DNA of 64,000 bases from a virus: positions 38,066 to 102,065 of the IMG/VR virus record IMGVR_UViG_3300032291_002123; one strand, written 5' to 3'. Both the position numbers and the translations under genes were made by a program. The notes beneath the pieces were generated by a model. It was given only the letters and a program-made list of their open reading frames with translations. It did no database searches and was not told the DNA's origin. Below, one piece after another: positions 11,602-38,126 of the stretch (positions are counted from its first letter, which is position 1; the number at the start of each line of letters is the position of its first letter).

Positions 11602-12157
11602 AATGTATTACTTTAGCACGAAAGTTCGAATGGTATTTCTTTGGAAAAATTTTTGGGGGATTCTTATGCTACAGAGGGCGTTACGGTTTCGTTATAATAA
11701 CTTTTTACTGACGGCAAAAATGATACATTAACGTATTTTGGATTTGTTGCGTGAGAGGGCAGCGGTTATATTTCGACGCTCCCAGAAACGTTTCCGGAAA
11801 CCATTTGATTGGTCAAAGGTCGAATTGTTTGGATGCGAATGACATTTGATTGATGTCGAGTTGCGATGGTGAAGTCAGGTTGTCAATGTTGCTATGTCAT
11901 AAAAATGGATGACAACCTGTTCAGGTCGGGAATCGGCAATCGGCTACTTTCGCTTTGATTGTATCAATCAACAATCATTAGGAAGCAAACGATTATTTGT
12001 ATTCTTGATGAGAGTGAATCTATGACATAAGAATTGACATAACTAATAAGCACTAAACAAAAGCAAAAGCAATTCGGCAATCAGAGAGATTTACTTTGAT
12101 GCTAGTGAATTACAAAAGCCATAGGGGTCTTAGATGATTGGCATCACTAACAAAGTT

Positions 12158-12187
12158 GATGAGTGTGATGAGTGATGAGTGATGAGT
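12158..12187 (+). repeat. Tandem GATGAGT repeats (4 copies) in a 760-bp non-coding gap
   Basis: gatgagtgtgatgagtgatgagtgatgagt read directly. Confidence 0.8.
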
Positions 12188-12364
12188 AGAACTATTACAT
12201 AAGGATAGAGATAGGTCATCCGCATCTGAGGTCATCAATCACATAATGATTTTTATTTGTTAGGTGATAGAAGTCGGGTAAGGTAATCCTTACTTGACAT
12301 CAAACATAGATGCCCATAACCTTGATACTGACACCATAAACAAAATCAAAAGGATGAAGCACTA

Positions 12365-12901
12365 ATGAATGACAATGACGGCGCACAATCGGCAAGCGAT
12401 ACCAGAGAATCATTTGCGGCAATAGACCGCAGAACTTATCCGAAGTATACGCCCGTATGGTCAGAGATTCTGCCAGGCTTATGGCAAGGCGGCACATTAG
12501 ATTCTGATAAGCACAATCAATACGCCGTACCGCTAATCTCAAAGAGAGAGTTCGATTCGGTATTTACTTTGTATGCTCACGCCAATCCTGTTGATTGGTT
12601 TGTGAAAGAGTTTCGATTTGGGTTTATGGATAGCGATGATACTGAGTTTGACACGGCACTACTAAAAAGAGTTGTTGCTCTTGCTCACGGCGATTGGAAG
12701 CGTGGCGAGAAAGTTCTCATTAGATGTCAAGCAGGTCTCAACCGCTCAGGCATAATCACCGCACTAGTTCTTATTCGTGATGGTCATTCTCCGAGCGAAG
12801 CAATTACTCTAATGAGAGCGAAGCGGAACGATTGGGTTCTATTCAATCCACACTTTGAGAAGTGGATTCTCAAACAATCACCGCAAGAGTGGCAAGACTA
12901 G
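12365..12901 (+). CDS. Dual-specificity / tyrosine protein phosphatase
   Basis: CX5R loop IRCQAGLNRSG; SEILPGLWQGG; NPHF; TTGACA at ~12295 and AAGGA RBS upstream. Confidence 0.9.
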   Translation: MNDNDGAQSASDTRESFAAIDRRTYPKYTPVWSEILPGLWQGGTLDSDKHNQYAVPLISKREFDSVFTLYAHANPVDWFVKEFRFGFMDSDDTEFDTALLKRVVALAHGDWKRGEKVLIRCQAGLNRSGIITALVLIRDGHSPSEAITLMRAKRNDWVLFNPHFEKWILKQSPQEWQD

Positions 12902-14286
12902 CGAAGTCTAAACAAACTCGAACGAGGGTCAGCAAGTTTCTTACTACCCATCGAGCGAGCAGTAATCTTTCCGCCAACGAACCCGGCAGGTGGCTTGATT
13001 AGTAAAGCCGTAAGAGCGTGAACAAGCGCATCAACTCGGTCAGGTGATTTGCCCTCACCCGGAATCCAAGAATACATTTGTGATTCGAGGTCTACGAGGT
13101 AGCCAACGTGATGAACACGCCCTTGCTCATAAGCAAGAGTTACGGGTTCGGCTCTCAGCGCTTTGCCGTATTTGCTATGAACCTCTAACACTTTGATGGT
13201 CGGGTCAATCGCATTGATGGCATTGCGAACTAGCGCACCTCCTTGGTTCACCTCGGCGATAACCGGGCAACCCCATTTGCGAGCCATAGCCACAACTTTG
13301 TTAGCCCAGACCTCAGGCGAACCTAACACCGAAGCATCCTCCAACACCCAAGCATTACGCTTATACAAGTCTCGCTCACCCGTCGATGAAACAACTACGA
13401 TGCCACATTCATCACGAGGGTTCTCCGCAACTGATGGGTCTACACCGATACAACGAAGTGGGGTGTTAGGTGGGTAAGTAGATTGTCTGTGCTTCTCGAT
13501 GAGTTCCTCTGTCCATAGCGCACCCTCGACAGCATCAAGCATCTCTCCATAAAGTTCTTGCTGTGCCAATCGAGTTCCAGCATAGACACCTGTAATCGCA
13601 TCAATGTATGAGTTCGAGAGGTTGCCCGAGTTATCCATAGTCGAGCCACGAGTAATCACTACTCTGCCAGACTTAGCCTCCTCGATAAGTTTGTAAAGCA
13701 ACGGCACACGCTTAGGTGTGGTGGTCACTAAGATTTGTGGGTTAGAGCCTAGACGAGTTCCAACTCGCAAGTTGTCGAACGCTGTCATACCGGCAGCATC
13801 AGGTGTCTGTCTCCAAGCAGCAATCTCATCGCCCCAAGCGTGAGTGAACTGAGGACCACGAAGTGAGTCAGGTTCATCCGCAGTAAAGCAAGTTGCTGTA
13901 TTGCCATTGGGCCAAGTCAATCGTCGCTTAGATGGTTCGTAGAGTGGTCGCTCACTAGGTGGCGAGACATTCATAATCCCAGACTCACCCTCGACGATAA
14001 CATCTCGCACATCCGCCGCAGTTCTAGCAACAAGAGCGAAACGCCTTTGCCCCGTGGTCGTGTATTTCGCTTGGTCTCGCACCCATTCGGCTGCCAGCCT
14101 AGTCTTACCGAATCCACGCCCAGCCATTACTAGCCAGATGTTCCAATCGCCCTCGGGTGTTTGCTGTTCAGGTCTACCCCAGACACTCCAATCCCATAGC
14201 AACGAGTCGGCATCCATACCAGATAAAGCCAACGCTCTTTCGTCGTCAGGCAGTTCAGCGAGAAGTTCCATAATACTTTTAGACAT
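12898..14286 (-). CDS. terL: Terminase large subunit
   Basis: Walker A AGRGFGKT, LRGPQF..AWGDE Walker B, TTTP motif III, RNase H-like GVDPS...SPDRVDA. Confidence 0.95.
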   Translation of the reverse strand: MSKSIMELLAELPDDERALALSGMDADSLLWDWSVWGRPEQQTPEGDWNIWLVMAGRGFGKTRLAAEWVRDQAKYTTTGQRRFALVARTAADVRDVIVEGESGIMNVSPPSERPLYEPSKRRLTWPNGNTATCFTADEPDSLRGPQFTHAWGDEIAAWRQTPDAAGMTAFDNLRVGTRLGSNPQILVTTTPKRVPLLYKLIEEAKSGRVVITRGSTMDNSGNLSNSYIDAITGVYAGTRLAQQELYGEMLDAVEGALWTEELIEKHRQSTYPPNTPLRCIGVDPSVAENPRDECGIVVVSSTGERDLYKRNAWVLEDASVLGSPEVWANKVVAMARKWGCPVIAEVNQGGALVRNAINAIDPTIKVLEVHSKYGKALRAEPVTLAYEQGRVHHVGYLVDLESQMYSWIPGEGKSPDRVDALVHALTALLIKPPAGFVGGKITARSMGSKKLADPRSSLFRLR

Positions 14287-14298
14287 AGGTCTATTGTA

Positions 14299-14565
14299 TT
14301 ACTGATTCTCCCTAAGCATTAGAGTCAAACCGAGCGCAGTTAGTTCAACGCTCACCGCAATCAACGCCTCAATCCGAGCGTTCATCCTCGCTATGTATGG
14401 CGGTGGTTTTGGGTGTCCATCATTTAGCGAGTCTTGGGTTTGGCTTATCAACTTACTGAACAGCGCACAATACATCTCGCAATGAACCGAGTGGGTAATC
14501 TCACCCCATTCGATTTCGCTGTTGTATTTTTCGTATAGGTCTTTTGTCATTTTATTCATAATCAA
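14299..14565 (-). CDS. Hypothetical protein
   Basis: Lies directly downstream of a TGTCAG-N10-TACATT promoter; the true start may be a few codons in. Confidence 0.6.
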   Translation of the reverse strand: MIMNKMTKDLYEKYNSEIEWGEITHSVHCEMYCALFSKLISQTQDSLNDGHPKPPPYIARMNARIEALIAVSVELTALGLTLMLRENQ

Positions 14566-14641
14566 AATGTATCACGCACCTCTGACATTCTGAGATAAAG
14601 AAAGACCCCAACCGAAGTCGAGGTCTTTCTTGGTTGTCCGA

Positions 14642-15190
14642 TTAGGCAACTCGGTTCTTGCTGTTGATTGGTTTGTATACCTTAGAGGTAGCGTTAGGCG
14701 CAGGTTTGTATCCATAGCGAGCAAGTCGGAATCGAATTGCCCCGTGAGATACGCCTAGTCGCTTTGCCAATCGGTAGAGCGTAACTCCATCTATGCTGTG
14801 CGCTTGGTTCAGCAAGCGAGTGTATTCCTCTGCCTCAGCACGATACCTAGGCGAGTGAGAGCGAACCTGTTGCGCTAGCGGTTGTAGTTCGAGCAGACGA
14901 GTTAGAATCTCGTCAGACGGCTCAACATACTCACGCTTGATTTTCTCAGGGTGGAATGGTGGTGTCGGAATGATGTAGTCGTCTCCTAGTTCAAGACCGG
15001 GAGATTTCATTTCGATAATCTGTCGGATACGCTCACGAGAGATACCGCAAGCATTTGCGATTGATTGAAGTGTCCAACCCATCGCTCTCAACTTGCGAAC
15101 ATACTCGTTGCGCTCGTCTCCGTCTTTGATTGTAAGAATCTTTGCTCTTACCTCAGGCGGTAGAGTGATTTGTCTTTTCATTTGGTTCAT
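14642..15190 (-). CDS. Double HTH protein (sigma70 region-4-like first HTH)
   Basis: WTLQSIANACGISRERIRQI and VTLYRLAKRLGVSHGAIRFRL. Confidence 0.75.
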   Translation of the reverse strand: MNQMKRQITLPPEVRAKILTIKDGDERNEYVRKLRAMGWTLQSIANACGISRERIRQIIEMKSPGLELGDDYIIPTPPFHPEKIKREYVEPSDEILTRLLELQPLAQQVRSHSPRYRAEAEEYTRLLNQAHSIDGVTLYRLAKRLGVSHGAIRFRLARYGYKPAPNATSKVYKPINSKNRVA

Positions 15191-15266
15191 TTGTCTGTCC
15201 TTATGTTGTTGTTTCTAGTTTAGATGGTTTGTTCAGTTCGTCAAGAGTTGTATGCTCTTGGCTAAC

Positions 15267-15635
15267 TTAGTCAATAATCAATTTCACCTTGTCATCTCCA
15301 TCAAAGACGGCAAGTAAGGTTGCTTCATCAACCACGCCCGTGATTTGTAATCCGTTTTTCTCTTGGAATAACATAATGTCGCTCTTAGTAGCATCACCGA
15401 ACCAGCCCTCTTTGTCTTTGAGAGCAAGTGTGAAGCCCAACTCGGCAAGTCTCTGCTGTAAGTAGTAGACACTCACCGAACGCTTAGAGATTGGGTTCTT
15501 GAATACAATCGCAGATAGGCGAACCTCAGCGATGTCGTCAAGTTTTATCCCAGCCTCAACCAATTTCCGCTCTTGGTGAGCATAAACTTGGTCTAAGGAT
15601 ACGGGAATAGGCACTTTGTATCGCTTTTCGGTCAT
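15267..15635 (-). CDS. Peptidoglycan-binding domain protein
   Basis: VYYLQQRLAELGF...GWFGDATKSDIMLFQEKNGLQITGVVDEATL (PG_binding_1 pattern). Confidence 0.8.
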   Translation of the reverse strand: MTEKRYKVPIPVSLDQVYAHQERKLVEAGIKLDDIAEVRLSAIVFKNPISKRSVSVYYLQQRLAELGFTLALKDKEGWFGDATKSDIMLFQEKNGLQITGVVDEATLLAVFDGDDKVKLIID

Positions 15636-15805
15636 TCAGACCTCTGTGCGAGGATTGATGCCACGATAGCCCCAGAAGCAAGGGAAATCACTAAATTAGT
15701 GGCTCCGGGAGCCAAAATAGCCACAAAAATAGCCAAAATCGTCAAAAATACAGCAAAAATGGCACTCCAAACCACATTTTTCAGCAAAAATCGCAGTTTA
15801 TTCAT
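15632..15805 (-). CDS. Small two-TM membrane protein (57 aa)
   Basis: Manual translation MNKLRFLLKNVVWSAIFAVFLTILAIFVAILAPGATNLVISLASGAIVASILAQRSE; AAGGAG RBS; stop overlaps the next ATG. Confidence 0.65.
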   Translation of the reverse strand: MNKLRFLLKNVVWSAIFAVFLTILAIFVAILAPGATNLVISLASGAIVASILAQRSE

Positions 15806-15973
15806 CTTTTTTCTCCTTTTTAGAGGTCGGCAGCACTACCCCAAGCAAAGGGCCGCTGTTTTTCCACGCATTTTGTTTCTTTATTATGATTTTCTGTATA
15901 ACATAATACAAACCTCCATAAATAGCAAGCAATCCGAGCAGAGATAGCACGATAATTAGTTCCATTTGAGTTC

Positions 15974-16969
15974 CTAACTCCTAACCAATGTATTCGAGTA
16001 GATGTCTTTGACAACATTTGCCCAGATTCTAGGCGTGTGGGTCTCGGCTTGGTATCCGCCAGCCCCGCCAATCAACACTCGCCCCTTACAATGCTTGTTA
16101 GCAAGGTCAGCGACAACACTTGAAGCATAGCGGTAGCCATCGTAGGTGTATTTCAAGCCCCAGCCCTCGCCCTCGTGTCCATCTGCCCCTGTTGCGAGCA
16201 GAATTACATCAGGCTCATACTCGTCAATCTTTTCGGCAATCAGGTCAATAGCCCAAGCCAACGCCTCGTCGCCCTCTCCTCGCTGTAAGTTGAAGTTATA
16301 CCAATGCTTGTCAGGGTCAGAGTATTCGTAGTTGCCTAGGTCATCCATCCCTCGCAACCAAGTGTCTGAGTGAACAGGGTAGACTCCGTGTCCGTGAATC
16401 GAGAAGGTGGGTATGTCCGTATCCTCTAAGAGATTCTGAACGCCGTCGCCAGCGTTTACATCCCAATCGATGTAGGCAACTTTCAAGCCAGCCTTACGAA
16501 ACTCTTTCGCAGCCCAAGCGAAGTCATTGAATACACAGAAGCCCTCAGACCAGCCGTATTGTGCGTGGTGTTTAGCACCCTGTGGATTGAAGCCAACCTG
16601 AGTTTCGCCAGCAATCATTTTCTCAACAAGGCGAGCAGTTCCAGCGAACATCTGAAAGGCGGTGTTGCCCATCTCTGTGCGCTTTCCATCCCAATCGTGA
16701 GACACTCCCTTATCAATTACCTCGCTCACGAACTTAGGGTCGTGGATAGTCTCCAACGCCTCCCTATCGCCATCACGGATTTCGGGTTCGATAATCTCCA
16801 CATTATCCGCACCAAGTTCCTCGGTAATGTATTGGGTAGCCAACTTAGCCCTAATCGGTTTCGTAGGGTGCGAGCCATCGCCAGAGCCTAACTGCCATTT
16901 GAGGTAGTCGTCGCTGTAAGCGATTGTTAGTTTATTTGGGTATGTCAATCTGTCCTTTTTTTCTTTCAT
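15974..16969 (-). CDS. Histone deacetylase / AcuC-family Zn-dependent deacylase
   Basis: HP.KP.R, GAKHHA...GFCVFND, YIDWDVNAGDGVQ, SIHG, GADGH, GGAGGY. Confidence 0.9.
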   Translation of the reverse strand: MKEKKDRLTYPNKLTIAYSDDYLKWQLGSGDGSHPTKPIRAKLATQYITEELGADNVEIIEPEIRDGDREALETIHDPKFVSEVIDKGVSHDWDGKRTEMGNTAFQMFAGTARLVEKMIAGETQVGFNPQGAKHHAQYGWSEGFCVFNDFAWAAKEFRKAGLKVAYIDWDVNAGDGVQNLLEDTDIPTFSIHGHGVYPVHSDTWLRGMDDLGNYEYSDPDKHWYNFNLQRGEGDEALAWAIDLIAEKIDEYEPDVILLATGADGHEGEGWGLKYTYDGYRYASSVVADLANKHCKGRVLIGGAGGYQAETHTPRIWANVVKDIYSNTLVRS

Positions 16970-17240
16970 CGTGTTTCTAAGTTATCAAATAAACTAGAAA
17001 AAGTCAAGTTTTGCGTGGAAAATCCTTGACCCTTTGTAATAAGCCTTATGTAATAACTTAGTCTCCGAGGTGTTCGTGCCTATCGTGCTTGTTCAGCCAA
17101 TCGGTAAGCCAGAATAAGCCAGCCAGCATTATGACGATAGAGCCAATAACAGCACCAAAAATTAGTAGAGTTTCCATAGCCATAATCTAGCATAAAAGAA
17201 ACCCCCTGACATAAGTCAAGGGGTCGTGTCTTTTTAGGGT

Positions 17241-17486
17241 CTAGCCCTCCACAGAAGCCTCATAGAAAGGCGGAAGTGGTTGAGTTGATGCCAGAGCCTT
17301 GCCGAACTTTTCTATCGCCAAGCAGGTGTCAGCAATCCAAGTGTCGTAAAGCACCTTGTCCACACCTGAGTGGGCTTCGTTCTTTTTTGCTTTCAACTCG
17401 GTAAGCGAGAACAAAAGAACGCTTTTCATAAATTGTAGTTCTTGGGTCTCGAACTCTACTGAGGTTGAGGTTTTTGTTTCTGTCAT
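17241..17486 (-). CDS. Hypothetical protein
   Basis: RBS, co-oriented, followed by a hairpin at 17201-17224. Confidence 0.65.
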   Translation of the reverse strand: MTETKTSTSVEFETQELQFMKSVLLFSLTELKAKKNEAHSGVDKVLYDTWIADTCLAIEKFGKALASTQPLPPFYEASVEG

Positions 17487-17500
17487 TTCTTTCTCCGTTT

Positions 17501-17929
17501 CTAGTTGTTTTTGTTGTTTAGGTAGTTGATGTAGCCGTCGCTGTTGATTTCTGCCTGATACTCGTCGGCATACACCCTCGGGTTAGTTTCTACTCTTGGG
17601 TAAGCACAGGTAGAGCAAAGGTCGTAGTCGATGTCAATCCCAACTCCGCAAACGCACTTGCGCTCCTCCAACTCCTCGGGTTCGGGTTCGATGTCTCGGG
17701 TATCGCCCTCGTCGATAATCGGGTTAGCCAATCGCTCTCGCTCATACTCCTCACCCTGAGCAACTCCAACCTCGTAGCCCGTGTCATAGGCGAGGTCGAA
17801 AATCATACGGGTGTTGTAGAGGTGTAGGTATGGTTCGGTCTTGTTATACCAATCCCAGAACGCAGCCTCTCGCACTCGTGCTTTTCGGGTGCTTACATCT
17901 AGGAAAGCGTTTACTTCGTCTTGTGTCAT
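17501..17929 (-). CDS. Hypothetical protein (CxC...CxxC)
   Basis: AAAGGA RBS; acidic; Cys pairs. Confidence 0.65.
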   Translation of the reverse strand: MTQDEVNAFLDVSTRKARVREAAFWDWYNKTEPYLHLYNTRMIFDLAYDTGYEVGVAQGEEYERERLANPIIDEGDTRDIEPEPEELEERKCVCGVGIDIDYDLCSTCAYPRVETNPRVYADEYQAEINSDGYINYLNNKNN

Positions 17930-18283
17930 TTTTGTCCTTTCTACAATACTAGGTTAGTCCGTGTCGAAGTGTTTGTCAAGTTCACTCGCCAAATAATTTA
18001 CGGCAATCGCAAGAATTAGGAAACACCCACCGATTAGCAGATTTGAGAATACAAGAGCATAACCAAAAGTTCCGCTAAACAGGATTGCCAGAGCAACTCC
18101 TCGAAGTAGGATTACCAATCCCTCCCGATTGTTCTTGCTCACTTGTTCCTCTGCGGTCTGCTCTTGGCGATTTGATTTATAGCCCAAGCAAAAGCCAACG
18201 CCCCAGATACAATCAGCCCAATAGCAGCCACTAAAAGTAGTTCTCTCATTTTGTCCTTTCGTCGTTTCTATGTTAGCACATTA

Positions 18284-18550
18284 TCACAGATAAGGCAACA
18301 TACCAAGCCGTCTCGACAATTCTGCCTCACATTGCGTTGAGAGGTCGCCAAAGACCTCCTCAGCGTTCGGGATAGTTCCTGACCTGTCTAGGTAAGTAAT
18401 CCCAGCGATAAGGCTCACGAGAGTGTTTACCGAGAACTCAATCTCATTGTCAAAGTCTAAAAATCCAGCGGTGAAGTTGTCGTTCACTCGATTGACAAAG
18501 GCGACGATTTCGTCGTCTGTCATTTCGGTAATGCTTTTTTCGGCAGCCAT
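18284..18550 (-). CDS. Hypothetical protein
   Basis: GAAAGG RBS; co-oriented. Confidence 0.6.
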   Translation of the reverse strand: MAAEKSITEMTDDEIVAFVNRVNDNFTAGFLDFDNEIEFSVNTLVSLIAGITYLDRSGTIPNAEEVFGDLSTQCEAELSRRLGMLPYL

Positions 18551-18661
18551 AGTAAGCCTTTCTTTGTTTATTATTTTAGCAGATTATTCTGCGTGGAAAA
18601 TCCCCTACCCTTTACGACAGAGCCGAACTCTCGCTCGGCTTGTCGGTGGGTGGGTGTATCC

Positions 18662-18880
18662 TTACCCGAAAAGATTTTTCCAGCAGGGTGGGCAATACCC
18701 TGATTGGAAACGCTCACGCTGGTCGGCGGTGAGATTAGGGAAAGCGTTTTGTATCAACGCCCCCTGATTGTAATCGAACAGGTTCTTGGAACTGACCTCA
18801 ACCTGAATAGTTCCCTCACACTTAGGGCAAGGCTTAGAGGTTGCGAGATACTCGCCCTCTTTGATTTTCTCGAACTTCAT
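18662..18880 (-). CDS. Small zinc-binding hypothetical protein
   Basis: CPKC...IQNAFPNLTADQRERFQSGYCPPCW; AAGGAG RBS. Confidence 0.7.
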   Translation of the reverse strand: MKFEKIKEGEYLATSKPCPKCEGTIQVEVSSKNLFDYNQGALIQNAFPNLTADQRERFQSGYCPPCWKNLFG

Positions 18881-19042
18881 TTTGCTCTCCTTTTTATTTT
18901 CTAACTAAACACGAACTCGGTAAACTCGCCAAGCGAGATTTCGCCACGGATAAGTTGCCATAGCAAAAGTGTCTGCCTCTTTTTTCGTAGCGAACTGATA
19001 AGGCTGAACACCTTGACCACGAACCTCAATAACCCAAATCAT

Positions 19043-19531
19043 TTACACCAACTCCTGTTCATCTTGTAAAACCACAAGCGAGACCACGCCTCGCTCTTTG
19101 ATTGGGTAGAACCCATACTGACCACGAGCAAAGTGGTAGTAGACATTAGCCAACTTGTAGCCCTTGCTCTCGTAGAACTTTTGCTGTTTGCCGTAAGAAT
19201 TAGCAACCGAAACATTGACCCACGATACAGAACCATCTGGGTTGTTTACTCGCCACACCTTGCCATACTTGCCGTCTACAATTTTTGCGTCTACGACATT
19301 ACCCTCCAAGTCGAGCAAAGCGTTTTCGTAATCAACGCCGTGATTGCGAGCCAAGCGAGCCTCACGGATGTGTTCACGATACATACCCTCGTGATAAAAA
19401 GCGTAGCCGTCGTTATCCAAAATACGCTGTTTGTCTAACTCAACAGCGTGAGCGTTCTGCTCACACTCGACAGCGTGAGCCTCCCACTCTTGTGGCGAAA
19501 CTCCCTCACGATACCAAATCGAAACTGACAT
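19043..19531 (-). CDS. Hypothetical early protein
   Basis: Own hybrid promoter and GAAAGGAG RBS. Confidence 0.7.
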   Translation of the reverse strand: MSVSIWYREGVSPQEWEAHAVECEQNAHAVELDKQRILDNDGYAFYHEGMYREHIREARLARNHGVDYENALLDLEGNVVDAKIVDGKYGKVWRVNNPDGSVSWVNVSVANSYGKQQKFYESKGYKLANVYYHFARGQYGFYPIKERGVVSLVVLQDEQELV

Positions 19532-19583
19532 TTGTATCTCCTTTCACTAAAATAGTATCAAAGACTACTGACATTTGTCAAGT

Positions 19584-20033
19584 CTAAAAGCCATTGTTTT
19601 TCGCACAGACAGGGCCGATACCCTCGGCAACGCTCTTAGGGTCTGTCAGGAAAATACCGCAGACACAGCACATACCTGTTTCCATACCAAAAGCCTTAGC
19701 CTGTTCCAGCGACATTTTGTGTTCTGGTTTTAGGCGATAGATAGCCCCAGCCTCATACTCGAAACCGCCCTCTAATGCGTTCAGTTTCTTAGCGTAAAGA
19801 CGGCTACTCATTTTGCTCGGGTGAACTCGGTAGATGTCGCCGTTCGGCATACGATACATACCAACCTCGCCGACAATTCCAGCAGCCCGAGGTGCTTTTA
19901 GTAGCGAACCGATTAGGTCGCTAGCGTCTTTCGAGGTGAGAACCTCAAAGTTGATTTCCTCGCCATTGTAGACACGCTCGGTTAGGAGTTTCTCGATGAA
20001 CTCCACCTGTCGAACTGATACCTTGTTAGCCAT
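19584..20033 (-). CDS. DUF6011-like zinc-ribbon protein
   Basis: GMCCVCGIFLTDPKSVAEGIGPVCA C-terminus. Confidence 0.75.
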   Translation of the reverse strand: MANKVSVRQVEFIEKLLTERVYNGEEINFEVLTSKDASDLIGSLLKAPRAAGIVGEVGMYRMPNGDIYRVHPSKMSSRLYAKKLNALEGGFEYEAGAIYRLKPEHKMSLEQAKAFGMETGMCCVCGIFLTDPKSVAEGIGPVCAKNNGF

Positions 20034-20263
20034 TTGCTATCCTCTCTCTCTTACAACTAAAAGATAGCACACCCCCCTGACATTTGTCAATTCCTATTAG
20101 GCGTGTCGCTTATGTAATTATTTTGCCAGGCGGTTGCTAGGCTGCCTCGCTCAAAGGGTGGGGCTTTTTCCACGCAAAACCAGCCAAAAATAAAAGATAG
20201 TTAGCGTAAGTAATAAAAAAAGAACCTTGCCTCTCGGCAAAGTTCTTTTTCGTGTGGTTCGGT

Positions 20264-20497
20264 TTACTCCTGCGAAAGTCGCTCGTTCATTAGAGCCAAG
20301 ACCTGTCGGCTGTGAGCCAGCACTTCGGTAAGCCTCTCGACCTCGCTGTGTATTTTTAGGTCAATCACCTTTTGGGATAACTTGACCAATCCCTCCATAA
20401 TTTTTATCTGCTCTGCCATAGCCCATACGATAGCCTCTCGTGGTGCGTTGGCGATTGTGGTTTCCCACTCCTCAATCGAGGTTAGTTGTTTTGACAT
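20264..20497 (-). CDS. Hypothetical protein
   Basis: Start re-set to MSKQ after an AAGGAAG RBS; terminator at 20221-20250. Confidence 0.6.
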   Translation of the reverse strand: MSKQLTSIEEWETTIANAPREAIVWAMAEQIKIMEGLVKLSQKVIDLKIHSEVERLTEVLAHSRQVLALMNERLSQE

Positions 20498-20557
20498 AAC
20501 TTCCTTTGGTTGTTTCGGCAAGGGGGAGATGTTCTCAATCCCCCGAGCCAAGTTTTT

Positions 20558-20767
20558 TTATTTAGCGTTTGCCCAAGCAATCGCTTTGTTGATTAGAGGT
20601 AGGCAAGCCATAAAGACCAGCCAAGAGAAATACATCACGAGCAGGTTATCCCACACGCCAGCACTTCCCGGTTCCGCACCCAGAGCCATTAGCAATAGGT
20701 TTAGAACGACATAAGCCAGAAAAATTACAGGAAAGAAAATCGTTCCTCGAACTAATCGCTTTATCAT
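20558..20767 (-). CDS. Small two-TM membrane protein
   Basis: Two hydrophobic segments; GAAAGGA RBS. Confidence 0.65.
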   Translation of the reverse strand: MIKRLVRGTIFFPVIFLAYVVLNLLLMALGAEPGSAGVWDNLLVMYFSWLVFMACLPLINKAIAWANAK

Positions 20768-20813
20768 TTTTGTCCTTTCGACATTTCTAAGGTATCAAAC
20801 CACTCGGCTTTTG

Positions 20814-21098: not shown

Positions 21099-21119
21099 CT
21101 CCTAATTTCTAAGGTAGCA

Positions 21120-22270: not shown

Positions 22271-22318
22271 AATTGTCCTTTCGTCTTTTTCATCTCTTAC
22301 CTAATTAGGTTATCAGGT

Positions 22319-22537: not shown

Positions 22538-22580
22538 TTTATTTCCTGCTTTCAGTTGGTTCTATTTTACACCAACTGCC

Positions 22581-26257: not shown

Positions 26258-26258
26258 T

Positions 26259-28245: not shown

Positions 28246-29082
28246 TTTATTTCTCCTTTTCTCTCCAACACTTTTACTATACTGCTAGCCTCTGACACTC
28301 GTTCGGCGGTCTATCTCTGTCGGGCAATACTCGACGGGAAAGCCAGCGTGGTCGTGCGACCACAATCCGTCAAGCACGAGATACGACGAGGTGATACGCA
28401 ATCCGCACTCGGCACATTCGCCGAACCACACACGATTATCTTTTCGGTATCCATCTCCGGGATTTAGAACCGAGAAGTTTGTGCCTAATCCTTTTTCCCG
28501 GATTGACTTCACATTTATTTCTGTCATTTCATCTCTCCCTATCCCAAGTGGATAAACGCCCGAAACTTTTTCTCGCAATTCCAGCAAAGGATTTTGCCAG
28601 ACCAACTCGTGATGAACTTTGGTTGCTTTTTACCGAACGATACTCCGCACTTTTCGCACTTGCTAGCACTCAACGATTTGTGGTTCACGAACGAAATTGC
28701 CATTTGATTTCTCCTAATCTTTCCGACACTTTTAGGGTATACCCACCCTCTGACACTCGACCTACTCGCTGTCGAAAATACAATGGCTACGAACCTCGAC
28801 CACGAAATCCTTGCCAGCGACTTTGCCACCGAACTCTTTTAGTCCGTAGACATAAGAACGAACCTCGACTTCGGTAAAGAACTCTCGCTCGATACCACTC
28901 GACAATTTGACAACCCACGACACAGCACCAACGCTCATAGTGCCTCCCTTCACTTCTTACGATACGGCAATTCTCCACTTATGTCAAGAGAAACGCCGTA
29001 AGTTTTTAGAAAGTTTTTTCGGCAAAGGGTCGGTGATTTTCCACGCACCAGAGGCAAAAAAAGATTGGAACTCTGCGACATA

Positions 29083-29218
29083 AGAAAATCCCCTATCACG
29101 AAAGGGGGGGGGGGTGTGATAGGGGATTTCTTTTACTATCGGGGGAGAACCTCGGCAGGTATGTTATCTAGAAAGGGGGGGGGATTAGATAACGGCGTTG
29201 AGGTCGTCAGCCCGATAG
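29083..29218 (-). ncRNA. 6C-like small RNA / 3'-UTR element: two hairpins with C9 and C11 loops
   Basis: gttatcta-atCCCCCCCCCtttc-tagataac nested in longer stems, then cccctatcac-aCCCCCCCCCCCtttc-gtgatagggg followed by a U-tract. Confidence 0.6.
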
Positions 29219-29226
29219 CCTCGGGG

Positions 29227-29550
29227 CTACTTTACAATAGCCACGAAGTCATACGGGTTCTCGTAAGACGCTTTTTCCCAAGCCTCTGGGAAAGCGGTTT
29301 TGAGAACATCTCGTTTGAGGTCGGTGCGGTTTCGGTGTTCGATTTTGTAGACGGCAACTCCACCCACAGTTGCGAACTCGGCAAGTCCGATTGCTTTACG
29401 CAGAACTTCCTCGGCTTGTGCCTTCTTAGCCTTCGCCTCTTTTTCGGCGTTGCTCGCCTCGGTAAAGTCGGCGATTGCCTGTCGAGCCTCGGCACTAAAT
29501 CCAACTTCTACGGAAGTGCCTTTTACAGTAGCGGTAATAGTCTTTGACAT
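29227..29550 (-). CDS. Hypothetical protein, paralog of 23739-24062
   Basis: Shared SVEVGF...AIADF.EA.NAEKEAKA...R.DLKRDVLK.AFPEA.E.ASYENPYDF. Confidence 0.8.
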   Translation of the reverse strand: MSKTITATVKGTSVEVGFSAEARQAIADFTEASNAEKEAKAKKAQAEEVLRKAIGLAEFATVGGVAVYKIEHRNRTDLKRDVLKTAFPEAWEKASYENPYDFVAIVK

Positions 29551-29663
29551 CTCACCACTCCTTTCATTTTGTCATTTCGGTTTTGTGGGAACTCCCACAT
29601 TTCTAGGGTAAGGGATACAATCCCTTTTGTCAATTCCAAACACGGCGTGTCGGAAAAGTTTTT

Positions 29664-29972
29664 TTATCCAACTACATCTTGGAAAGTCTGGGCAACTGCC
29701 TCGTCAAGAGCCTCGACCAACTCGGCAATCTTGTCGTCTGGCAAATCACGAACTAGGTCAAGGGTGATTTCAGATTTCCACACCACAACCTTGTCAGCGT
29801 TCGCCAATCGGAAATCTCCGAGAGCCTCGGCAACTCCGCAAGCAGAACAAATCTCGGTCTTGTTATCGGCACGAGAAATCGCTCCGGGATACGCCCCCGG
29901 GTTTTCGTTGCTTGGTATGTAGCCAGAACACTTCGGGCAACGAACCAAGTCTTTGTCATAAGCATCGCTCAT
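29664..29972 (-). CDS. Zinc-binding hypothetical protein
   Basis: Start re-set to MSDA after GAAAGGAG; CPKC...YPGAISRADNKTEICSACG. Confidence 0.7.
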   Translation of the reverse strand: MSDAYDKDLVRCPKCSGYIPSNENPGAYPGAISRADNKTEICSACGVAEALGDFRLANADKVVVWKSEITLDLVRDLPDDKIAELVEALDEAVAQTFQDVVG

Positions 29973-30226
29973 TTTGTATCTCCTTTCACTTCTGATTGTG
30001 CCAGAGTATCGAACTTTTGTCAAGTCTATTTTGACATTTTTCCAAACTTTTTTTCGGCGACCATCTCGATTTTTTTGTGTGTCAATTCCACGATACCAAG
30101 ACCCTCTGACATTGGGCGAAAGTCGTTTTGACATAAGCGAAAAGTATTTCCGGGATTAGCCCGGTTTTGCGTGGAAAATCGGCAACCCTTTACAAAAAAG
30201 GATTGGCTCTCGCCAATCCAATTTTG

Positions 30227-30493
30227 CTAGTTCAGACCTTCAATCCGTAATTCGCAGGTATCGCAGACCTTGTGGTTTCCGTCGAAATCCCAATCCGTCG
30301 TATTGAACTGATGCTCACCCGCTACGAAGTGTTCGGCTAGTTCTCGTCTCTCGCTATCACCAGCATCATCTATCGCACTCCACATTAGTTCTGTCCAAGA
30401 ACTCGTATCCGTTAGCACTAAGTCCTTAGCATCTCCGTATGAACCATCCTCGGCAAAATAAGTCTTGCTCTTAGCGGTTTCGCTTGCCGTCAT
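30227..30493 (-). CDS. Hypothetical protein
   Basis: Coupled to the upstream ORF; terminator at 30199-30218. Confidence 0.6.
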   Translation of the reverse strand: MTASETAKSKTYFAEDGSYGDAKDLVLTDTSSWTELMWSAIDDAGDSERRELAEHFVAGEHQFNTTDWDFDGNHKVCDTCELRIEGLN

Positions 30494-30843
30494 TAGACAT
30501 CATCCTCTCCGATAAATACAATCTCCAACTTGGCAACTCGTTCTCCCCAGCCGTCGAGGTCTACGAAGTGGGCGACTACTGGATACAATCCGTCTCCCAA
30601 TCCTGTCCGTGATACTACTCCCGAGCCAGCGTGTCCAGCAAGGAAGTTCAACTGTCCGTTATCCTCTTGCCGTAGGGTCAGGTCGCAAGCACCAGCGTAG
30701 GAATAGTCTCCGTTAGGAACTCTCGTGCCGTATTCGTTGTCTCCCCATCCACCGAGATAACTCGGGTCGGTGATAAGTATCTGTCCACTATCGACGGCAC
30801 AGAATCCGATTACGGCTTGCCGTGTTTTGTTTTTGGTTGTCAT
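30493..30843 (-). CDS. DUF4241-like hypothetical protein
   Basis: GFCAVDSGQILITDPSY...TGLGDGLYPV. Confidence 0.6.
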   Translation of the reverse strand: MTTKNKTRQAVIGFCAVDSGQILITDPSYLGGWGDNEYGTRVPNGDYSYAGACDLTLRQEDNGQLNFLAGHAGSGVVSRTGLGDGLYPVVAHFVDLDGWGERVAKLEIVFIGEDDV

Positions 30844-30985
30844 TCCTTCTCCTCTGTTTTCGGCGGTGATAGTTTCCACTCTAAAGTCTCGAGCGTGTTC
30901 TCGTCGTAGTCGCCCGTCGAACGCATCTCGGCAATCGTGTCAAGAACATCCGTAATAATCTTTTCGTAAATCGTCGGGTCAATCA

Positions 30986-31379: not shown

Positions 31380-31988
31380 TTAGTTCTCCTCCTTGAAGTA
31401 GTCGTAGATGCTGTATTCGCTGGCGTTCTCCCAGTCAATGCATCCATCCTCGTCGAGAGGAACTCCAAGCGACTTGTAGATGTCTGGGGTAATGTCTACA
31501 CACTCGTCGTCTAGTTCGCCATCCTCGATAAACGCACGACCTAGATAGCCAACGCCCTCCTCGGCGTAAAGGTTCTTGACCCGAATTGGATACTGCTCAC
31601 TTAGGGTTTGCCAGAATGGTAGAGCAGGAGACCACGCTGTCGAATAGCCAATCTCAAACTTGAACTGCTTGCCATCTGTTGTCGGCACAATCTTGGAAAT
31701 CTGCGTGGTATCAAAATCCAAATCCCACTTAGTTCCCCAGTTGCCTAGTCGCCAGTTATACCAGTTTGTGTAGGCATACTTGCGATTACCAGCGAGAGCG
31801 TTCATCCACTCTGTCTCGTCGTTAGCAGACTTACCTTTTCCAAAGTTCCTATCGCCCAAGCCCTCTGGTTGTGGAACTAACTGCTGAAACGAAAACGCTT
31901 GGTTATCATCTTTTGCTTTTGCGAGAATCGTCTCGAGAACTTCTTTATCTCCAACGACCTCAACTGTGTTGTCGCACCAATTTGGCAT
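31380..31988 (-). CDS. DUF1281/YubB ferredoxin-like domain protein
   Basis: MPNWCDN...WYNWRLGNWGTKWD...TAWSPA...YAEEG. Confidence 0.8.
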   Translation of the reverse strand: MPNWCDNTVEVVGDKEVLETILAKAKDDNQAFSFQQLVPQPEGLGDRNFGKGKSANDETEWMNALAGNRKYAYTNWYNWRLGNWGTKWDLDFDTTQISKIVPTTDGKQFKFEIGYSTAWSPALPFWQTLSEQYPIRVKNLYAEEGVGYLGRAFIEDGELDDECVDITPDIYKSLGVPLDEDGCIDWENASEYSIYDYFKEEN

Positions 31989-32921: not shown

Positions 32922-34925
32922 CTAGCCGTTTCGCTTGCCAGCGGTTGTCAATGCTCGGGCCGCTGATTCGCCAATCATCGTCGAGATTGACCCTGCGGTT
33001 GCACCTCGCTTGATTTCGACATACACCGCATCCGTTCCTCTTATGTGATAAGGGATGAAGTCATTCCCACCACCCTCGAACCCGAGCCAGAGAACTGCCA
33101 CGCCGTTCCGTTGGCACGAGGCTAGCCAATGCTTTACCTGCTCTCGTTCCTCCTGCGTGTAGTATCCGTCAGACACAATCACGAGCAGTCTCGCACCCGA
33201 GCCGTGAAGTAGATTCATCGAGCCGTCAATCGCCTTGAACGCCTTGCCGAACTTCTCGGTGTTGTCTCGTGCCGTATACACATTCACATCGGTGAGGTGC
33301 TGTCCCGGCTTGAGAGTGGCGAACACATCGTTGCCGTAGTAGACCATAGATGCCTTGCCGTGAACTCGTCGAACTGCCTCTGACATAACCCAAGCGGTAG
33401 TCGCCATTGGTTGCATCGCCTCGCCCATCGAGCCAGAGATGTCCACCATAATTCCGACATTCAGTTCTGGGTTGTCTGTGTGCTTGCGCTTGGTCGCTCT
33501 CCAAGGTTCGACCTTGGCATTGACACCATTCGCTTTATAGGCTGCTCTCTGAACCATCGCACGAGAACGCAGACGACCTACTGGCAACTCGCTCGTAATC
33601 TCGACCTGCGAACGCTCACGATACTTTGCCTTCTCGAGCAGTCGTGCAACACGAACTGCACTCGCTCGTTCCTCGCCAGTTGGTTTACGAACCTCGACCA
33701 GTTTTGAGTTGGTTGCTAATCCATCAGAAGGACCTGTGCCACGACCAAACACTTCAGTCGCAACATCCTTGTGCTGTTTCGCCTCTTTCGCTGAATCTGC
33801 CTTGTCCTTGGCAATCTCTTTCCACTCCTCTGATTCAATCTGTTCCTCTGCATCAGAACGAGATGAAATCTCGGCGTTGTCCTTTGCCTCGTTCAAGGCA
33901 TCGAGCATCTCTTTGATAAGGTCTTGCTCGGCAGAAGTTGAACCTGAACCAGAACCTGAATCAGAACCCTCCTCTGATTCGCCAGATTCTGAATCGCTAG
34001 AACCTGAACCTGAACCAGTCTCACCAGATTCTGAATCGCCAGATTCTGATTCGCCAGAACCAGAACCAGTCTCGCCAGTTGGAGATGGAGTTCCTGAACC
34101 AGATTCTGATTCGCCCTTCTCACCAGTCGGCGATGGAGTTGGGTGGCAACCGGGGTGAGGTGAGTTTCCAGTCTCGCCCTTTTCTGCTTTTGTCTCGTTG
34201 ATAACTTTGACCCACTCACGAGCGAGGTCGTAAAGTTTTGTCGCATCAGCGTGAAGGTCGTGCGCTTGGAACTCAATCCAAATCGCACGAAGTTTTGCAA
34301 CGACATCTGCACCAAGAATCTTTTCGAGAACAGGAACAACAGGTTCGACATCACTCTCGTCAAGAACACCTGCATCAACTCGAGCGAGGGTTAGAGCAGC
34401 GAGGAAAGATGCACCTGCAACATTAGTAATCTTTGCAACTTGGTTTTCCAAATCTGCAACCACGATGTGCAACGCAGATGAACGCAGAAAAACTTTGTTC
34501 TTTGGATTCGTGCGAATACCAAAAGCCTCGATACGACCCTCCTCCAAATTGAACAGCGCACCAAACTCGTCTCGAGTTAGTTCTGCTTGTGCTTGTTCGA
34601 TTGACCAGCGTGAGAATCGAGCGTGGAGTGCCTCGTGGAAAATTGCGCCAGTCGCAACTGGGTGAGCAAGTTGATTGATTCGCTTAGTGAGGTCTCCAAC
34701 CTCGGCAGGTTCGATGTTGCCAAAAGCAACTTTTGTATTTACTTCAATCTCGGCACTTCGTGGTGAGAACGCAGCCGGGGCACCAGACACAGTTGTCTCG
34801 CCCAAGTTCACTACTAGGTCGTTTCGGAACGACCAGTCATTGACCAGCGCACCAATCTGCGCCCCTGCTCGTAGCCATTCGCTAGGTGTTGATTTTCTTG
34901 TCTCGGCAATTCCATAGTGAGCCAT
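32922..34925 (-). CDS. vWA-domain protein with N-terminal HExxH metallopeptidase-like domain (CobT/vWA-MoxR partner)
   Basis: FHEALHAR...NLEEGRIE; long G/S/E linker; MIDAS DISGSM, T, VSDG. Confidence 0.85.
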   Translation of the reverse strand: MAHYGIAETRKSTPSEWLRAGAQIGALVNDWSFRNDLVVNLGETTVSGAPAAFSPRSAEIEVNTKVAFGNIEPAEVGDLTKRINQLAHPVATGAIFHEALHARFSRWSIEQAQAELTRDEFGALFNLEEGRIEAFGIRTNPKNKVFLRSSALHIVVADLENQVAKITNVAGASFLAALTLARVDAGVLDESDVEPVVPVLEKILGADVVAKLRAIWIEFQAHDLHADATKLYDLAREWVKVINETKAEKGETGNSPHPGCHPTPSPTGEKGESESGSGTPSPTGETGSGSGESESGDSESGETGSGSGSSDSESGESEEGSDSGSGSGSTSAEQDLIKEMLDALNEAKDNAEISSRSDAEEQIESEEWKEIAKDKADSAKEAKQHKDVATEVFGRGTGPSDGLATNSKLVEVRKPTGEERASAVRVARLLEKAKYRERSQVEITSELPVGRLRSRAMVQRAAYKANGVNAKVEPWRATKRKHTDNPELNVGIMVDISGSMGEAMQPMATTAWVMSEAVRRVHGKASMVYYGNDVFATLKPGQHLTDVNVYTARDNTEKFGKAFKAIDGSMNLLHGSGARLLVIVSDGYYTQEEREQVKHWLASCQRNGVAVLWLGFEGGGNDFIPYHIRGTDAVYVEIKRGATAGSISTMIGESAARALTTAGKRNG

Positions 34926-35060: not shown

Positions 35061-36071
35061 CTAGATTCGTGCTGGCTTGACTTCCTCGCCGAACGCACGA
35101 CTGAAAACATCGGCAACGACTGGTCTGTCAAGTTCTGGTGCGCTAGCAAGCAAGTTGCTAATCGCAAACGAAGTTCCGAACAACTCGGCGAGGTCTCGGA
35201 AAGCGAGAACTTCACGCATCTGCGGAGACCACGACACTTCATCACTCGCTTGCTTTTTCGCAAGATTCTGGCTGGCAGTAATCACAACAGCAGGAACGCC
35301 CAACTTACGAGCGATAGTCCAGTCAGTAGTCATTTCTGCTTGAACAGAGAATCGAGAGAGCAACGCCTCGGAGAGAACAACTCCCGGTGCATTGGGGTTC
35401 GTTGCACTAACCACAAAGAATCCATCCTTGGCTTTTACTGTGCCACGCTCCGGGTTTTGAGTGATAGTGATTTCACCACGACCATCCATTAGTCCATAGA
35501 CCAACGAAAGAACTTTCGGGTCTACCAAACCAATCTCGTCAATCAGGAGAACTTTACCCTCCTCGACTGCACGAACGAGAGGACCATCAATCCACTCGAA
35601 CCCACCACTTGCAGTCTGAACATAACCACCAACGAAGTCTGCAACTTCGGTGTCGCCAGTTCCAATGACTGTGTAGAGGTCGTCGCCAAAAGCAGCCTCG
35701 AGCATCGCAGTCTTACCAGTTCCCGGTGCGCCATAAAGCAGAACATACTTCTTGGCATCACGAGACTTGCGAATCACTTCGATGTCGGCGTGTTCAGTAT
35801 TACCCCACTTGCGAGAAGTGTAGGTCTCACCATTAGGTCGAACATAAACTCCTTCACCACTAAGTGCCTCTGCCACGATGGTTTTCACCCTCTTTGTAGT
35901 TCCTGAATTGTCTCGCACACGAATGACTGCACGACCAGATGCCTCGTCGAAAAACTTGTCAAGCGATGCATCTAATTCTGCATTTAGTTTTTGACCACTA
36001 ACTGCAAACAGAGCCTCGGAAAGTTCTTTCGAGAATCGTTCTTGGTCGATAATTACTTGTTGTCTATTCAT
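35061..36071 (-). CDS. MoxR/CbbQ/CobS-type AAA+ ATPase
   Basis: GAPGTGKT, DGPLVRA, LLIDEI, ATNP, LSEALLSRF. Confidence 0.9.
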   Translation of the reverse strand: MNRQQVIIDQERFSKELSEALFAVSGQKLNAELDASLDKFFDEASGRAVIRVRDNSGTTKRVKTIVAEALSGEGVYVRPNGETYTSRKWGNTEHADIEVIRKSRDAKKYVLLYGAPGTGKTAMLEAAFGDDLYTVIGTGDTEVADFVGGYVQTASGGFEWIDGPLVRAVEEGKVLLIDEIGLVDPKVLSLVYGLMDGRGEITITQNPERGTVKAKDGFFVVSATNPNAPGVVLSEALLSRFSVQAEMTTDWTIARKLGVPAVVITASQNLAKKQASDEVSWSPQMREVLAFRDLAELFGTSFAISNLLASAPELDRPVVADVFSRAFGEEVKPARI

Positions 36072-36587: not shown

Positions 36588-36665
36588 TTTTTCCTTCCTT
36601 CTAACTCTTACTTACTAATTGAAACATAGTTTGATTCAAAAGTCAAGCGTGTCGCCAAACTTTTT

Positions 36666-37115
36666 TTAGTCAATTCGTGAATCTGCATAAGCCTCGATGC
36701 CAATCGCATTTAGGTGCTGAGATACTCCTCGAGCGACTTGCTCTTTGAGTTGTAGCGACTGTCGAGTTTGAGCGAACCCTTTACCATCGACCCAGAACTG
36801 CACGCCCTTGTAGCCACCACCCCATTGGTAGTGCTTGTATCCTTTACCAGTTTCGAGAATCCACTTAGCGAACGCAGAACGCCCATTCGGAACTACGACC
36901 CAAGCGAACCCACAAACTCCATCTGCTACGAAGTAGGTTTTTTTAGAGTAGTCGATGTCATTCCCGAGGGGAGTGGTTGGTGAACCCACAATCATAGGAG
37001 TGGGTGGAGTGGCTTTTGCCAATGCCTCGTGCGATACACGCTGGAGGTCTAGCCAAATCTGCTCGAACTTGCGCTGATTGGCAACGCTGACTTTTGCTTT
37101 TTTAGTGGTTGTCAT
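36666..37115 (-). CDS. Hypothetical phage protein
   Basis: GVCGFAWV...QSLQLKE...A...L...GI.....SRID; hybrid promoter. Confidence 0.75.
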   Translation of the reverse strand: MTTTKKAKVSVANQRKFEQIWLDLQRVSHEALAKATPPTPMIVGSPTTPLGNDIDYSKKTYFVADGVCGFAWVVVPNGRSAFAKWILETGKGYKHYQWGGGYKGVQFWVDGKGFAQTRQSLQLKEQVARGVSQHLNAIGIEAYADSRID

Positions 37116-37186
37116 TTTGTCCTTCCTTCTACTCTCTTATTATTGCATACACCTCTGACACTTGTCAAGGGTATTTTTAGGTGTGT

Positions 37187-37438
37187 CTAATCGCTGACTA
37201 TCTCGTAGCCCTTCTTGGTTTTTTTATCTACGAGGTCGTCGATGAAAATCGAGGCGAGGAACTTGCTATCAAAAGTGTGCTGTTTTTGCTGTCGTGAATA
37301 CCACATCTCTGCTCGACCCCAACTAACTTGAACGACTGACTTACCACTCGACACTTCAAAGAGGTCAACCACATAACGCTTTTTGAACCCCCAGTCGCCT
37401 CGTGCGCCTTGGGAGGTTGCTTCCAAAATAATCTTCAT
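37187..37438 (-). CDS. WGR-domain protein
   Basis: KKRYVV...VQVSWGRAE...KTKKGYE; start re-set to MKII. Confidence 0.65.
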   Translation of the reverse strand: MKIILEATSQGARGDWGFKKRYVVDLFEVSSGKSVVQVSWGRAEMWYSRQQKQHTFDSKFLASIFIDDLVDKKTKKGYEIVSD

Positions 37439-37479
37439 ACTCAGAGTATGGCAAAAAAATTGGCAGATGTCAAGTTTGT

Positions 37480-37710
37480 TTATAGAACAGGCGTGGCGCA
37501 CTCAGCGCAGACAATCCATTCAGCCTCGTCGTCCAGACATACAACGAATGCGACGAAGCCAGCGTCAGTGCTGCCCACTTGCTCGTGGCATTGCTCGCAC
37601 GACTCGTCGTCGAAGATGTCGAGTCCCACTGCGTTACCAGCGTCGACGTCGTGCGGTTCTTCAATCAGGTGCATCTCGATGTGTCTCATGTTTATAGGAT
37701 AAAACATCAT
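37480..37710 (-). CDS. Cys-rich hypothetical protein
   Basis: CEQC...CAEC. Confidence 0.5.
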   Translation of the reverse strand: MMFYPINMRHIEMHLIEEPHDVDAGNAVGLDIFDDESCEQCHEQVGSTDAGFVAFVVCLDDEAEWIVCAECATPVL

Positions 37711-38126
37711 CCGTTACGTGATTTGGACGTTGCTGCTACACGTCTGGTGCGAGTCATCCGTTTGCTGCGGCTGACTGTAGCATAAGCGTAAGTCGCACCC
37801 GTTGCTTGCTGAGCAGCGTCCCCGTCACTGGCTACGCAGCAATCCCTTGCCGTCATCGCATGCCGTTATGTAATTCCCAGCGCAGCGGGAGTCATCCATC
37901 AACGTGCGTGGAAAATCAGGCACCCTTTGGTGGCACGCCGTTGCTGCGTGGAAAATCAGGCACCCTTTGGCTCGCCGCTGCGAGAAGACATCCGTTATCA
38001 CTTACCGTTATGTAATAAACTCGCCAGGCTCCACACCAGGTGGGACACCAGGCTCGCCGCTGGTCATCTGTAACACAAGCCGTTATGTAATTAACAGCGC
38101 TGCGGGTCTCTTGGTCGTTTCGGTTC

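Follow-up and report, generated by a model that had tools for sequence, protein, structure and literature searches.

The 64 kb of DNA described here (the window) form the last part of a 102,065-bp single-contig IMG/VR record, IMGVR_UViG_3300032291_002123, and contain a sharply bounded block, at 11729-38090, from which many short restriction-type words that are common in the rest of the genome have been removed. The block has the character of an early gene region, and a purge of the same kind recurs, one-sidedly, in relatives of the phage. Our preferred reading, which we think likely, is that this early region enters first, as in T5, probably lies within a long terminal repeat, and is kept free of the restriction sites recognized in the host population. 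The principle is known from T5 and T7-like phages; in the literature that we searched, we found no paper on a regional purge in actinophages or on one of this extent. The source record is listed as linear in IMG/VR, with a completeness of 76% by CheckV, and counts for the whole genome refer here to all 102,065 bp.

The purge is most easily seen with TTAA, which occurs at 11728 and next at 38091. The gap between these copies is 26,363 bp, the second-largest TTAA gap in the window being 1,093 bp. In the whole genome, TTAA is found 0 times inside the block and 352 times outside, where 123 copies would be expected inside from the outside density; the corresponding figures (inside/outside/expected inside) are 1/192/67 for ATAT, 2/163/57 for CATG, 8/301/105 for ACGT, 34/331/115 for TGCA, and 4/63/22 for GTAC. 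Every inside copy of ACGT lies at 11788, at 13106, or beyond 37646, and TGCA has no copy from 11221 to 31439. The asymmetric, MboII-type word GAAGA/TCTTC is purged as well (4 copies inside, 353 outside), with 26.1 kb free of a copy between 11289 and 37432. Interrupted words behave in the same way (inside/outside: GTNAC, 7/288; ACNGT, 14/293; CTNNAG, 17/466; CASTG, 4/142), GGNNCC is also purged inside the block only, and the hexamers GAATTC, CTGCAG, TTCGAA, and AAATTT have 0 copies inside, where GTCGAC is purged too. The initial annotation of this DNA, made by eye, had reported that TTAA was missing from about 11732 to 38090, which is correct, and the depletion is stronger than was reported there; the purge of GAAGA/TCTTC, the interrupted words, and the hexamers had gone unnoticed. 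It had also described CATG, ACGT, and TGCA as absent or nearly so over most of the interval; the near-complete purge does extend to about 37646 for the first two words and to 31439 for TGCA.

A second set of words is avoided everywhere. AGCT and GATC, initially called rare, are depleted across the window and in fact occur zero times in the whole 102 kb; CGCG occurs once and GGCC 15 times, and GTAC and CCGG are low. There are two tiers of avoidance, with few words avoided genome-wide and many in the block only, and the purged region is the sole one of its kind in the 102-kb genome. We note separately that the block is rich in TCGA (161 copies vs 92 expected) and CCGG (28 vs 9), mostly in its coding sequence. 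Sites are not crowded into the gaps between genes in this DNA.

The words that are lost are of a particular type. The ten 4-mers with the lowest observed/expected ratios in the block are all palindromes, and non-palindromic 4-mers are near the Markov expectation. When the open reading frames (ORFs) of the block were shuffled among synonymous codons, the mean count per purged tetramer was 39-91 copies, with a minimum of at least 27, compared with 0-5 observed. Base composition and codon usage can be rejected as the cause because the shuffled ORFs keep the purged tetramers. Both the observed/expected palindrome counts, as proposed in the initial annotation, and the shuffling give a regional depletion far above the expectation from composition. 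The depletion is confined to palindromic or enzyme-type words and exceeds what composition and codon usage produce; a restriction-avoidance signature, comprising palindromes and the type IIS-like word GAAGA, is supported by these data. We take the purged words to be sites of MseI, NlaIII, MaeII, RsaI, MaeIII, HpyCH4III, TspRI, MboII, EcoRI, and PstI; for ATAT, we know of no characterized cognate restriction enzyme.

Judged by its protein matches, the phage is an uncultured freshwater actinophage of lakes, in agreement with its first assignment to the actinophages. Protein searches place its portal and large terminase subunit (TerL) closest to those of Actinomycetia phage DSL-LC01 (72-77% identity), the record of which is a metagenome assembly from a Chinese lake (PMC10611076) and the gene order of which is syntenic with the window; Microbacterium, Arthrobacter, and Gordonia phages come next. 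Megablast of two 8-kb pieces against the phage collection gave no match, and the clade was placed by protein-level searches. DNA of the phage was detected in lake-water metagenomes of 17 studies (20 runs).

TerL and an AAA+ ATPase encoded near one end of the block (the AAA protein) each retrieved many IMG/VR contigs, from which 39 distinct loci centered on the AAA gene were compared. A relative was counted as purged when at least three tetramer palindromes were depleted at least 5-fold inside. In many loci, the site density falls from 10-30 per kb to nothing at about 1 kb upstream of the AAA gene, and 19 of the 39 are purged, one-sidedly, at the same syntenic edge. Scored palindrome by locus, 136/624 cases are depleted inside and 0/624 outside; for 120 non-palindromic tetramer pairs, the depleted cases are 6/4680 inside and 0 outside. 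In 10/10 purged lineages examined, the distance from the AAA gene to the AAA-side edge upstream of it is 0.84-1.67 kb. The position of the other edge is variable: in this phage and one close relative it is found some 1.1 kb beyond TerL, in other lineages 2.7, 4, or 5 kb ahead of that gene, and block length across lineages ranges from 13 to 26 kb. In a complete relative of 153.7 kb, the ends of which overlap by 127 bp, a single zone is purged (131.3-145.0 kb). The word sets are lineage-specific, and some lineages have lost 9-11 of the 16 tetramer palindromes. The present block keeps CTAG and TCGA, the latter of which is lost in other lineages, and AGCT, GATC, GGCC, and CCGG are purged only inside in lineages that keep those words elsewhere. 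Such differing sets look like an ongoing arms race and not like one ancestral event. About half of the relatives carry the same genes without a purge.

These comparisons bear on two explanations that dispense with local selection by restriction. In the first, the block would have been imported from a phage that avoids sites genome-wide, such as DSL-LC01 (OQ999401.1; 129,469 bp, 53.6% GC), which has 0 copies of TTAA, ATAT, and GAATTC in its entire genome together with 114 of TATA and 142 of AATT, and which shows no regional purge beyond composition. Recombination inside the block, visible in the nested sub-zones described below, would also fit an import. Import should, however, give the reverse pattern as often as the observed one, and the reverse pattern is seen in 0/624 cases across the 39 loci; moreover, the same edge is used in 10/10 purged lineages despite their different word sets, the lack of AGCT, GATC, and CGCG is common to the whole genome, and contigs of independent samples bridge the edges. 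The early concern that the region might be a recent insertion or a misassembly from a genome-wide avoider is likewise at odds with the one-sided pattern in 19 of 39 relatives and with the lack of those three words in both block and remainder. We rejected import, which we regard as highly improbable. In the second explanation, palindromes would be avoided in early genes for transcriptional, structural, or nucleoid-protein reasons. The block does have its own promoters and boxes, but the asymmetric GAAGA is purged as fully as the palindromes, the purged palindromes differ by lineage, and half of the relatives have the same genes and no purge; we give this account very little credence.

Within the block, the purge is not uniform. 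The core sub-zone (Table 1) is without at least 17 word types; TCNGA is missing from 17064 to 26181, within this core, and CTNNAG from 11669 to 30881. The block is thus mosaic: on one common purge are superimposed at least three segments that differ in their purge history, and the nested GANTC, TCNGA, and TGCA zones indicate recombination between lineages with different purge sets.

Both edges are sharp. At the TerL side, the last outside sites are TTAA at 11728, ATAT at 11768, and ACGT at 11788; at the AAA side, ACGT and CATG return from 37646 and TTAA from 38091. Each edge falls in a gap without a coding-strand gene that contains short repeats, in line with the initial description of both ends as non-coding repeat tracts, and gaps at the edges measure 0.4-0.9 kb. 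Promoter and terminator scans at both edges returned nothing informative. Misassembly can be rejected because independent contigs bridge both edges. Per-contig depth is about 2-fold higher inside the block than beyond 39.9 kb in two of four runs; these depths mix strains and are not copy numbers, and we did not use them as evidence of a repeat. No molecule ends were seen among the contigs of the four runs.

Three further observations concern the edges and the contigs around them. At 37996-38001, contigs from two other runs (other lakes) have 56 different letters in place of 4, a difference in repeat number within the edge tract. Of the IMG/VR contigs that end less than 10 kb downstream of TerL, most end 0.1-4 kb away, which looks like an assembly-break hotspot between TerL and portal, probably a strain-variable region. 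Contig ends were considered as genome termini and rejected, since the ends 0.1-4 kb downstream of TerL are scattered instead of lying at one site, as assembly breaks in a variable region would be.

The block encodes about 40 mostly small ORFs, and the function of most of them is not recognized; the landmarks are collected in Table 1. From about 42.8 kb to the start of the window, homology-supported genes are on the minus strand, except for a few plus-strand ORFs, and inside the block the phosphatase gene is the only exception. An NlpC/P60 protein is also encoded in the block. TTGACA-N17/18-TAnnnT promoter-like sites (consensus matches only) recur upstream of the small genes, and all 14 copies in the genome of a bipartite box, GCGTGGAAAA-N7-CCCTT, are confined to the block, as the initial annotation had it. 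Two of the 14 GCGTGGAAAA-N7-CCCTT boxes sit in the perfect 26-nt direct repeat at 37905 and 37945. What had been described as dense small early genes forms a regulatory unit in its own right, in which the small genes run in one direction, the promoters are sigma-70-like, and a 22-bp box occurs that is found nowhere else in the genome. Read from the sequence, these features point to an early, host-transcribed regulon. Two of its genes track the purge: a YubB-like ORF is present in 16/19 purged and 4/17 unpurged lineages, and the 76-amino-acid first ORF in 15/19 and 7/17, respectively (counts uncorrected for phylogeny). The YubB-like protein is a candidate early anti-defense protein.

Table 1. 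Coordinates of the purged block, its sub-zones and edges, and landmark genes in the window
Feature	Position	Strand	Remark
Open frame >2,681 codons, several GNAT acetyltransferase domains	2-8044	-	next to portal; probably a capsid-borne polyvalent protein
Portal protein, outside block	8579-10393	-	site density normal
HTH protein just outside TerL-side edge	11098-11601	-	homologue of Pumpernickel gp76; first gene of head operon
TGCA-free sub-zone	11221-31439	.	word scan
TerL-side edge	11601-12365	.	0.76-kb gap without coding-strand gene; short direct and inverted repeats
Purged compartment (TTAA-free interval)	11729-38090	.	without or nearly without TTAA, ATAT, CATG, ACGT, GAAGA/TCTTC, GTNAC, CASTG
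Dual-specificity phosphatase gene	12365-12901	+	convergent with TerL, inside purge
Large terminase subunit (TerL)	12898-14286	-	inside purge here, outside purge in other lineages
HTH / sigma-70 region-4-like protein	14642-15190	-	homologue of Pumpernickel gp49, near inner end of Pumpernickel repeat
Span of all 14 GCGTGGAAAA-N7-CCCTT boxes (22 bp) of the 102-kb genome	15848-37967	.	both orientations, together with TTGACA-type promoters
Histone-deacetylase-family domain protein	15974-16969	-	domain match
Core sub-zone, additionally without GANTC	16432-30802	.	word scan
YubB/DUF1281_C-like protein	31380-31988	-	homologue of Pumpernickel gp13, inside that phage's terminal repeat
VWA (CoxE/CobT-like) protein	32922-34925	-	homology
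AAA+ ATPase (MoxR/CobS-like)	35061-36071	-	conserved landmark 0.84-1.67 kb inside fixed edge
First small ORF of block, 76 amino acids	37480-37710	-	in relatives (among them the complete 153.7-kb genome), the purge begins at its homologue
AAA-side edge	37711-38126	.	non-coding tract; perfect 26-nt direct repeat (37905, 37945), three CCGTTATGTAAT copies, two bipartite boxes
Endolysin-like gene (CHAP + PG_binding), just outside AAA-side edge	38127-38894	-	homologue of Pumpernickel gp5
Pumpernickel gp1 homologue, unpurged here	39053-39964	-	gp1 is the first gene after Pumpernickel's physical left end

Long terminal repeats are found among cultured relatives, and terminal-repeat packaging is present in the TerL clade. 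Microbacterium phage Pumpernickel (OK040790.1), a soil phage with a TerL 62% identical to that of the present phage, has an exact direct terminal repeat of 19,963 bp that holds 52 small genes, including an endolysin; no repeat feature is among the annotated features listed for its terminal stretches. This repeat is syntenic with most of the block, as traced by the homologues of gp1, gp5, gp13, and gp49 (Table 1). Gordonia phage Sixama (MN484601.1) has an exact terminal repeat of 1,702 bp, behind which come 22 kb of small genes that point to the left end. That block and long terminal repeat coincide in the present phage is a possibility about which we are rather doubtful.

In our view, this region alone is exposed to many site-specific nucleases. 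Taken together, the results suggested to us the following course of infection, in which entry order, staging, a shield, and the position of the genome ends are what we infer. The block would be the early gene region, naked in the cell before any phage-made protection exists, and would enter and be expressed first, much as in the first-step transfer of T5 or the slow, transcription-coupled entry of T7. Because the DNA of the block would be the first to enter, any host type II or IIS site in it would be lethal, and selection by the combined restriction repertoire of the host population would have removed those words, mostly via synonymous changes. The rest of the genome would enter, or become accessible, after an early product has neutralized restriction generally, and so could keep its sites. 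AGCT, GATC, CGCG, and GGCC would be avoided genome-wide presumably as the shield misses the corresponding enzymes. The block would probably lie within a long direct terminal repeat, or match one for the most part, and so would lead whichever end enters. As to which edge leads, the AAA side is favored by the constancy of its edge and by the orientation of the genes; that the purge is more complete toward TerL points the other way, an observation that recombination could explain. The shield might be the YubB-like protein or another of the conserved early proteins. It is conceivable, and we would put it just short of an even chance, that a large, abundant clade of uncultured freshwater actinophages combines staged entry with an early-made, broad type II/IIS shield, and that their early regions record the restriction repertoires of the host populations, with at least 17 specificities in the present genome, including ATAT.

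Several results weigh against this proposal. A regional purge is missing from the soil relatives Pumpernickel and Sixama, and in DSL-LC01 the avoidance of TTAA and ATAT extends over the entire genome. The block and the Pumpernickel repeat do not share their limits, which differ by about 2 kb on one side and about 2.6 kb on the other: homologues of the Pumpernickel end genes (38.1-40.0 kb) are unpurged here, and TerL, which is outside that repeat, is purged. Four samples have contiguous DNA over the AAA-side edge, which fits a collapsed repeat and equally an internal position. The promoter-proximal 6.6 kb still contain TGCA, GANTC, and CTNNAG, which disappear further in; were the AAA side to lead, a simple gradient would run the other way. 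Homologues of known anti-restriction families and of other known early functions were not found either: T5 A1, A2, and dmp have no PHROG or Pfam match among the roughly 40 block ORFs; ArdA (PF07275) has no match, in a search whose positive control worked; Ocr (PF08684) has no match in the genome, in a search that had no positive control; and the single-subunit phage RNA polymerase (PF00940) has no match in this 76%-complete genome, in a search whose positive control matched nowhere.

Two other accounts keep some form of protection for the remainder of the genome. The phage might make or bring short-site nucleases that destroy host DNA while only the block is inside, with the rest still in the capsid or protected later. 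T5 pre-early functions do degrade host DNA and spare first-step DNA (10.1101/866236), the list of purged words is long, with at least 17 specificities lost from the core, and most of the early proteins are unassigned in function. On the other hand, the block contains no nuclease family except two short RecE-like C-terminal matches, the lineage-specific word sets would need a fast turnover of phage-encoded specificities, and staged entry would still be required; this account seems unlikely to us. Alternatively, the whole genome might enter at once, with the remainder protected by modification of the virion DNA and the block left unmodified (e.g., because host RNA polymerase or regulators must read it, or as an escape from modification-dependent nucleases) and relying on site loss. 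Outside the block, the genome encodes an N6/N4 DNA methylase, ThyX, dNMP kinase, and related nucleotide enzymes, and the approximately half of relatives that show no avoidance must use another strategy. If methylases protected these words, however, there would be no need for the block to lose them, more than 15 specificities are beyond the reach of one methylase, and AGCT, GATC, and CGCG are avoided genome-wide anyway. To our knowledge, no region-restricted DNA modification is known in phages, and we consider this account quite improbable.

If the T5-like reading of the block is true, T5-style protection, in which the first DNA is siteless and the rest is actively guarded, extends to siphovirus-type phages of Gram-positive actinobacteria, where staged entry has not been described, and a general anti-restriction function would be expected among the small early proteins. 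The scale is unusual, with 13-26 kb and up to 11 of 16 tetramer palindromes removed. Purges of this kind also offer a computational readout of the restriction repertoire of uncultured lake bacteria via their phages.

The closest precedent is T5/BF23, in which the leftmost 8% of the genome, inside a 10-kb terminal repeat, enters first and halts at a repeat-rich non-coding signal until pre-early proteins release the rest, and in which both type I and type II systems restrict only if their sites are in the first-step DNA (PMC10644984; 10.1101/866236). In T7-like phages, too, only motifs in the leading region, which enters first and is transcribed by the host, count for sensitivity (PMC12455610). 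With sites tolerated outside but not inside first-entering DNA already established for these phages, calling the present case an undescribed system, as was done initially, overstated it. Like the T5/BF23 first-step segment, the block is a segment of early genes, with sites that are fatal there and harmless elsewhere in T5/BF23 and, as a footprint only, 0-8 copies inside versus 163-353 outside here (TTAA, ATAT, CATG, ACGT, GAAGA). The T5 segment lies in a long direct terminal repeat, which in our case is seen in a relative, and T5 has a repeat-rich non-coding stop at the inner end, where the block has repeat-bearing gaps at both edges. The differences are that the lineage is unrelated (a siphovirus-type actinophage, with TerL and portal grouping with those of Microbacterium, Gordonia, and Arthrobacter phages), that the block is without A1, A2, and dmp, that it measures 13-26 kb instead of about 10 kb, that at least 17 word types are lost and not just a few sites, and that two-step entry is predicted here. 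With the T7-like Autographiviridae, the block shares co-oriented early genes with host-type promoters; no Ocr homologue or phage RNA polymerase was detected here (searches without positive controls), and what has been published for those phages bears on type I systems and on single motifs, with no wholesale loss of 4-5-bp words.

More distant likenesses can be drawn to other systems. SPO1 carries a host-takeover module in its long terminal repeat, and this terminal redundancy holds many small early genes with strong host-type promoters; SPO1 DNA, however, is protected by hydroxymethyluracil, and regional avoidance is not described for it. In the leading regions of conjugative plasmids, the first-entering DNA likewise carries early anti-defense genes, and YubB is presumably a gene of the F-plasmid leading region; the transfer is single-stranded in that case and the type of element is different. 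Finally, avoidance of sites throughout a genome is reportedly found in staphylococcal phage K, said to be free of GATC, and surveys of site avoidance are attributed to Sharp (1986), Rocha (2001), and Rusinov (2018). The genome studied here conforms to this pattern for AGCT and GATC, which are absent, and CGCG, which occurs once, as does DSL-LC01 for TTAA and ATAT, but its second and larger tier is confined to one region, a type of signal that surveys averaged over whole genomes miss or underestimate.

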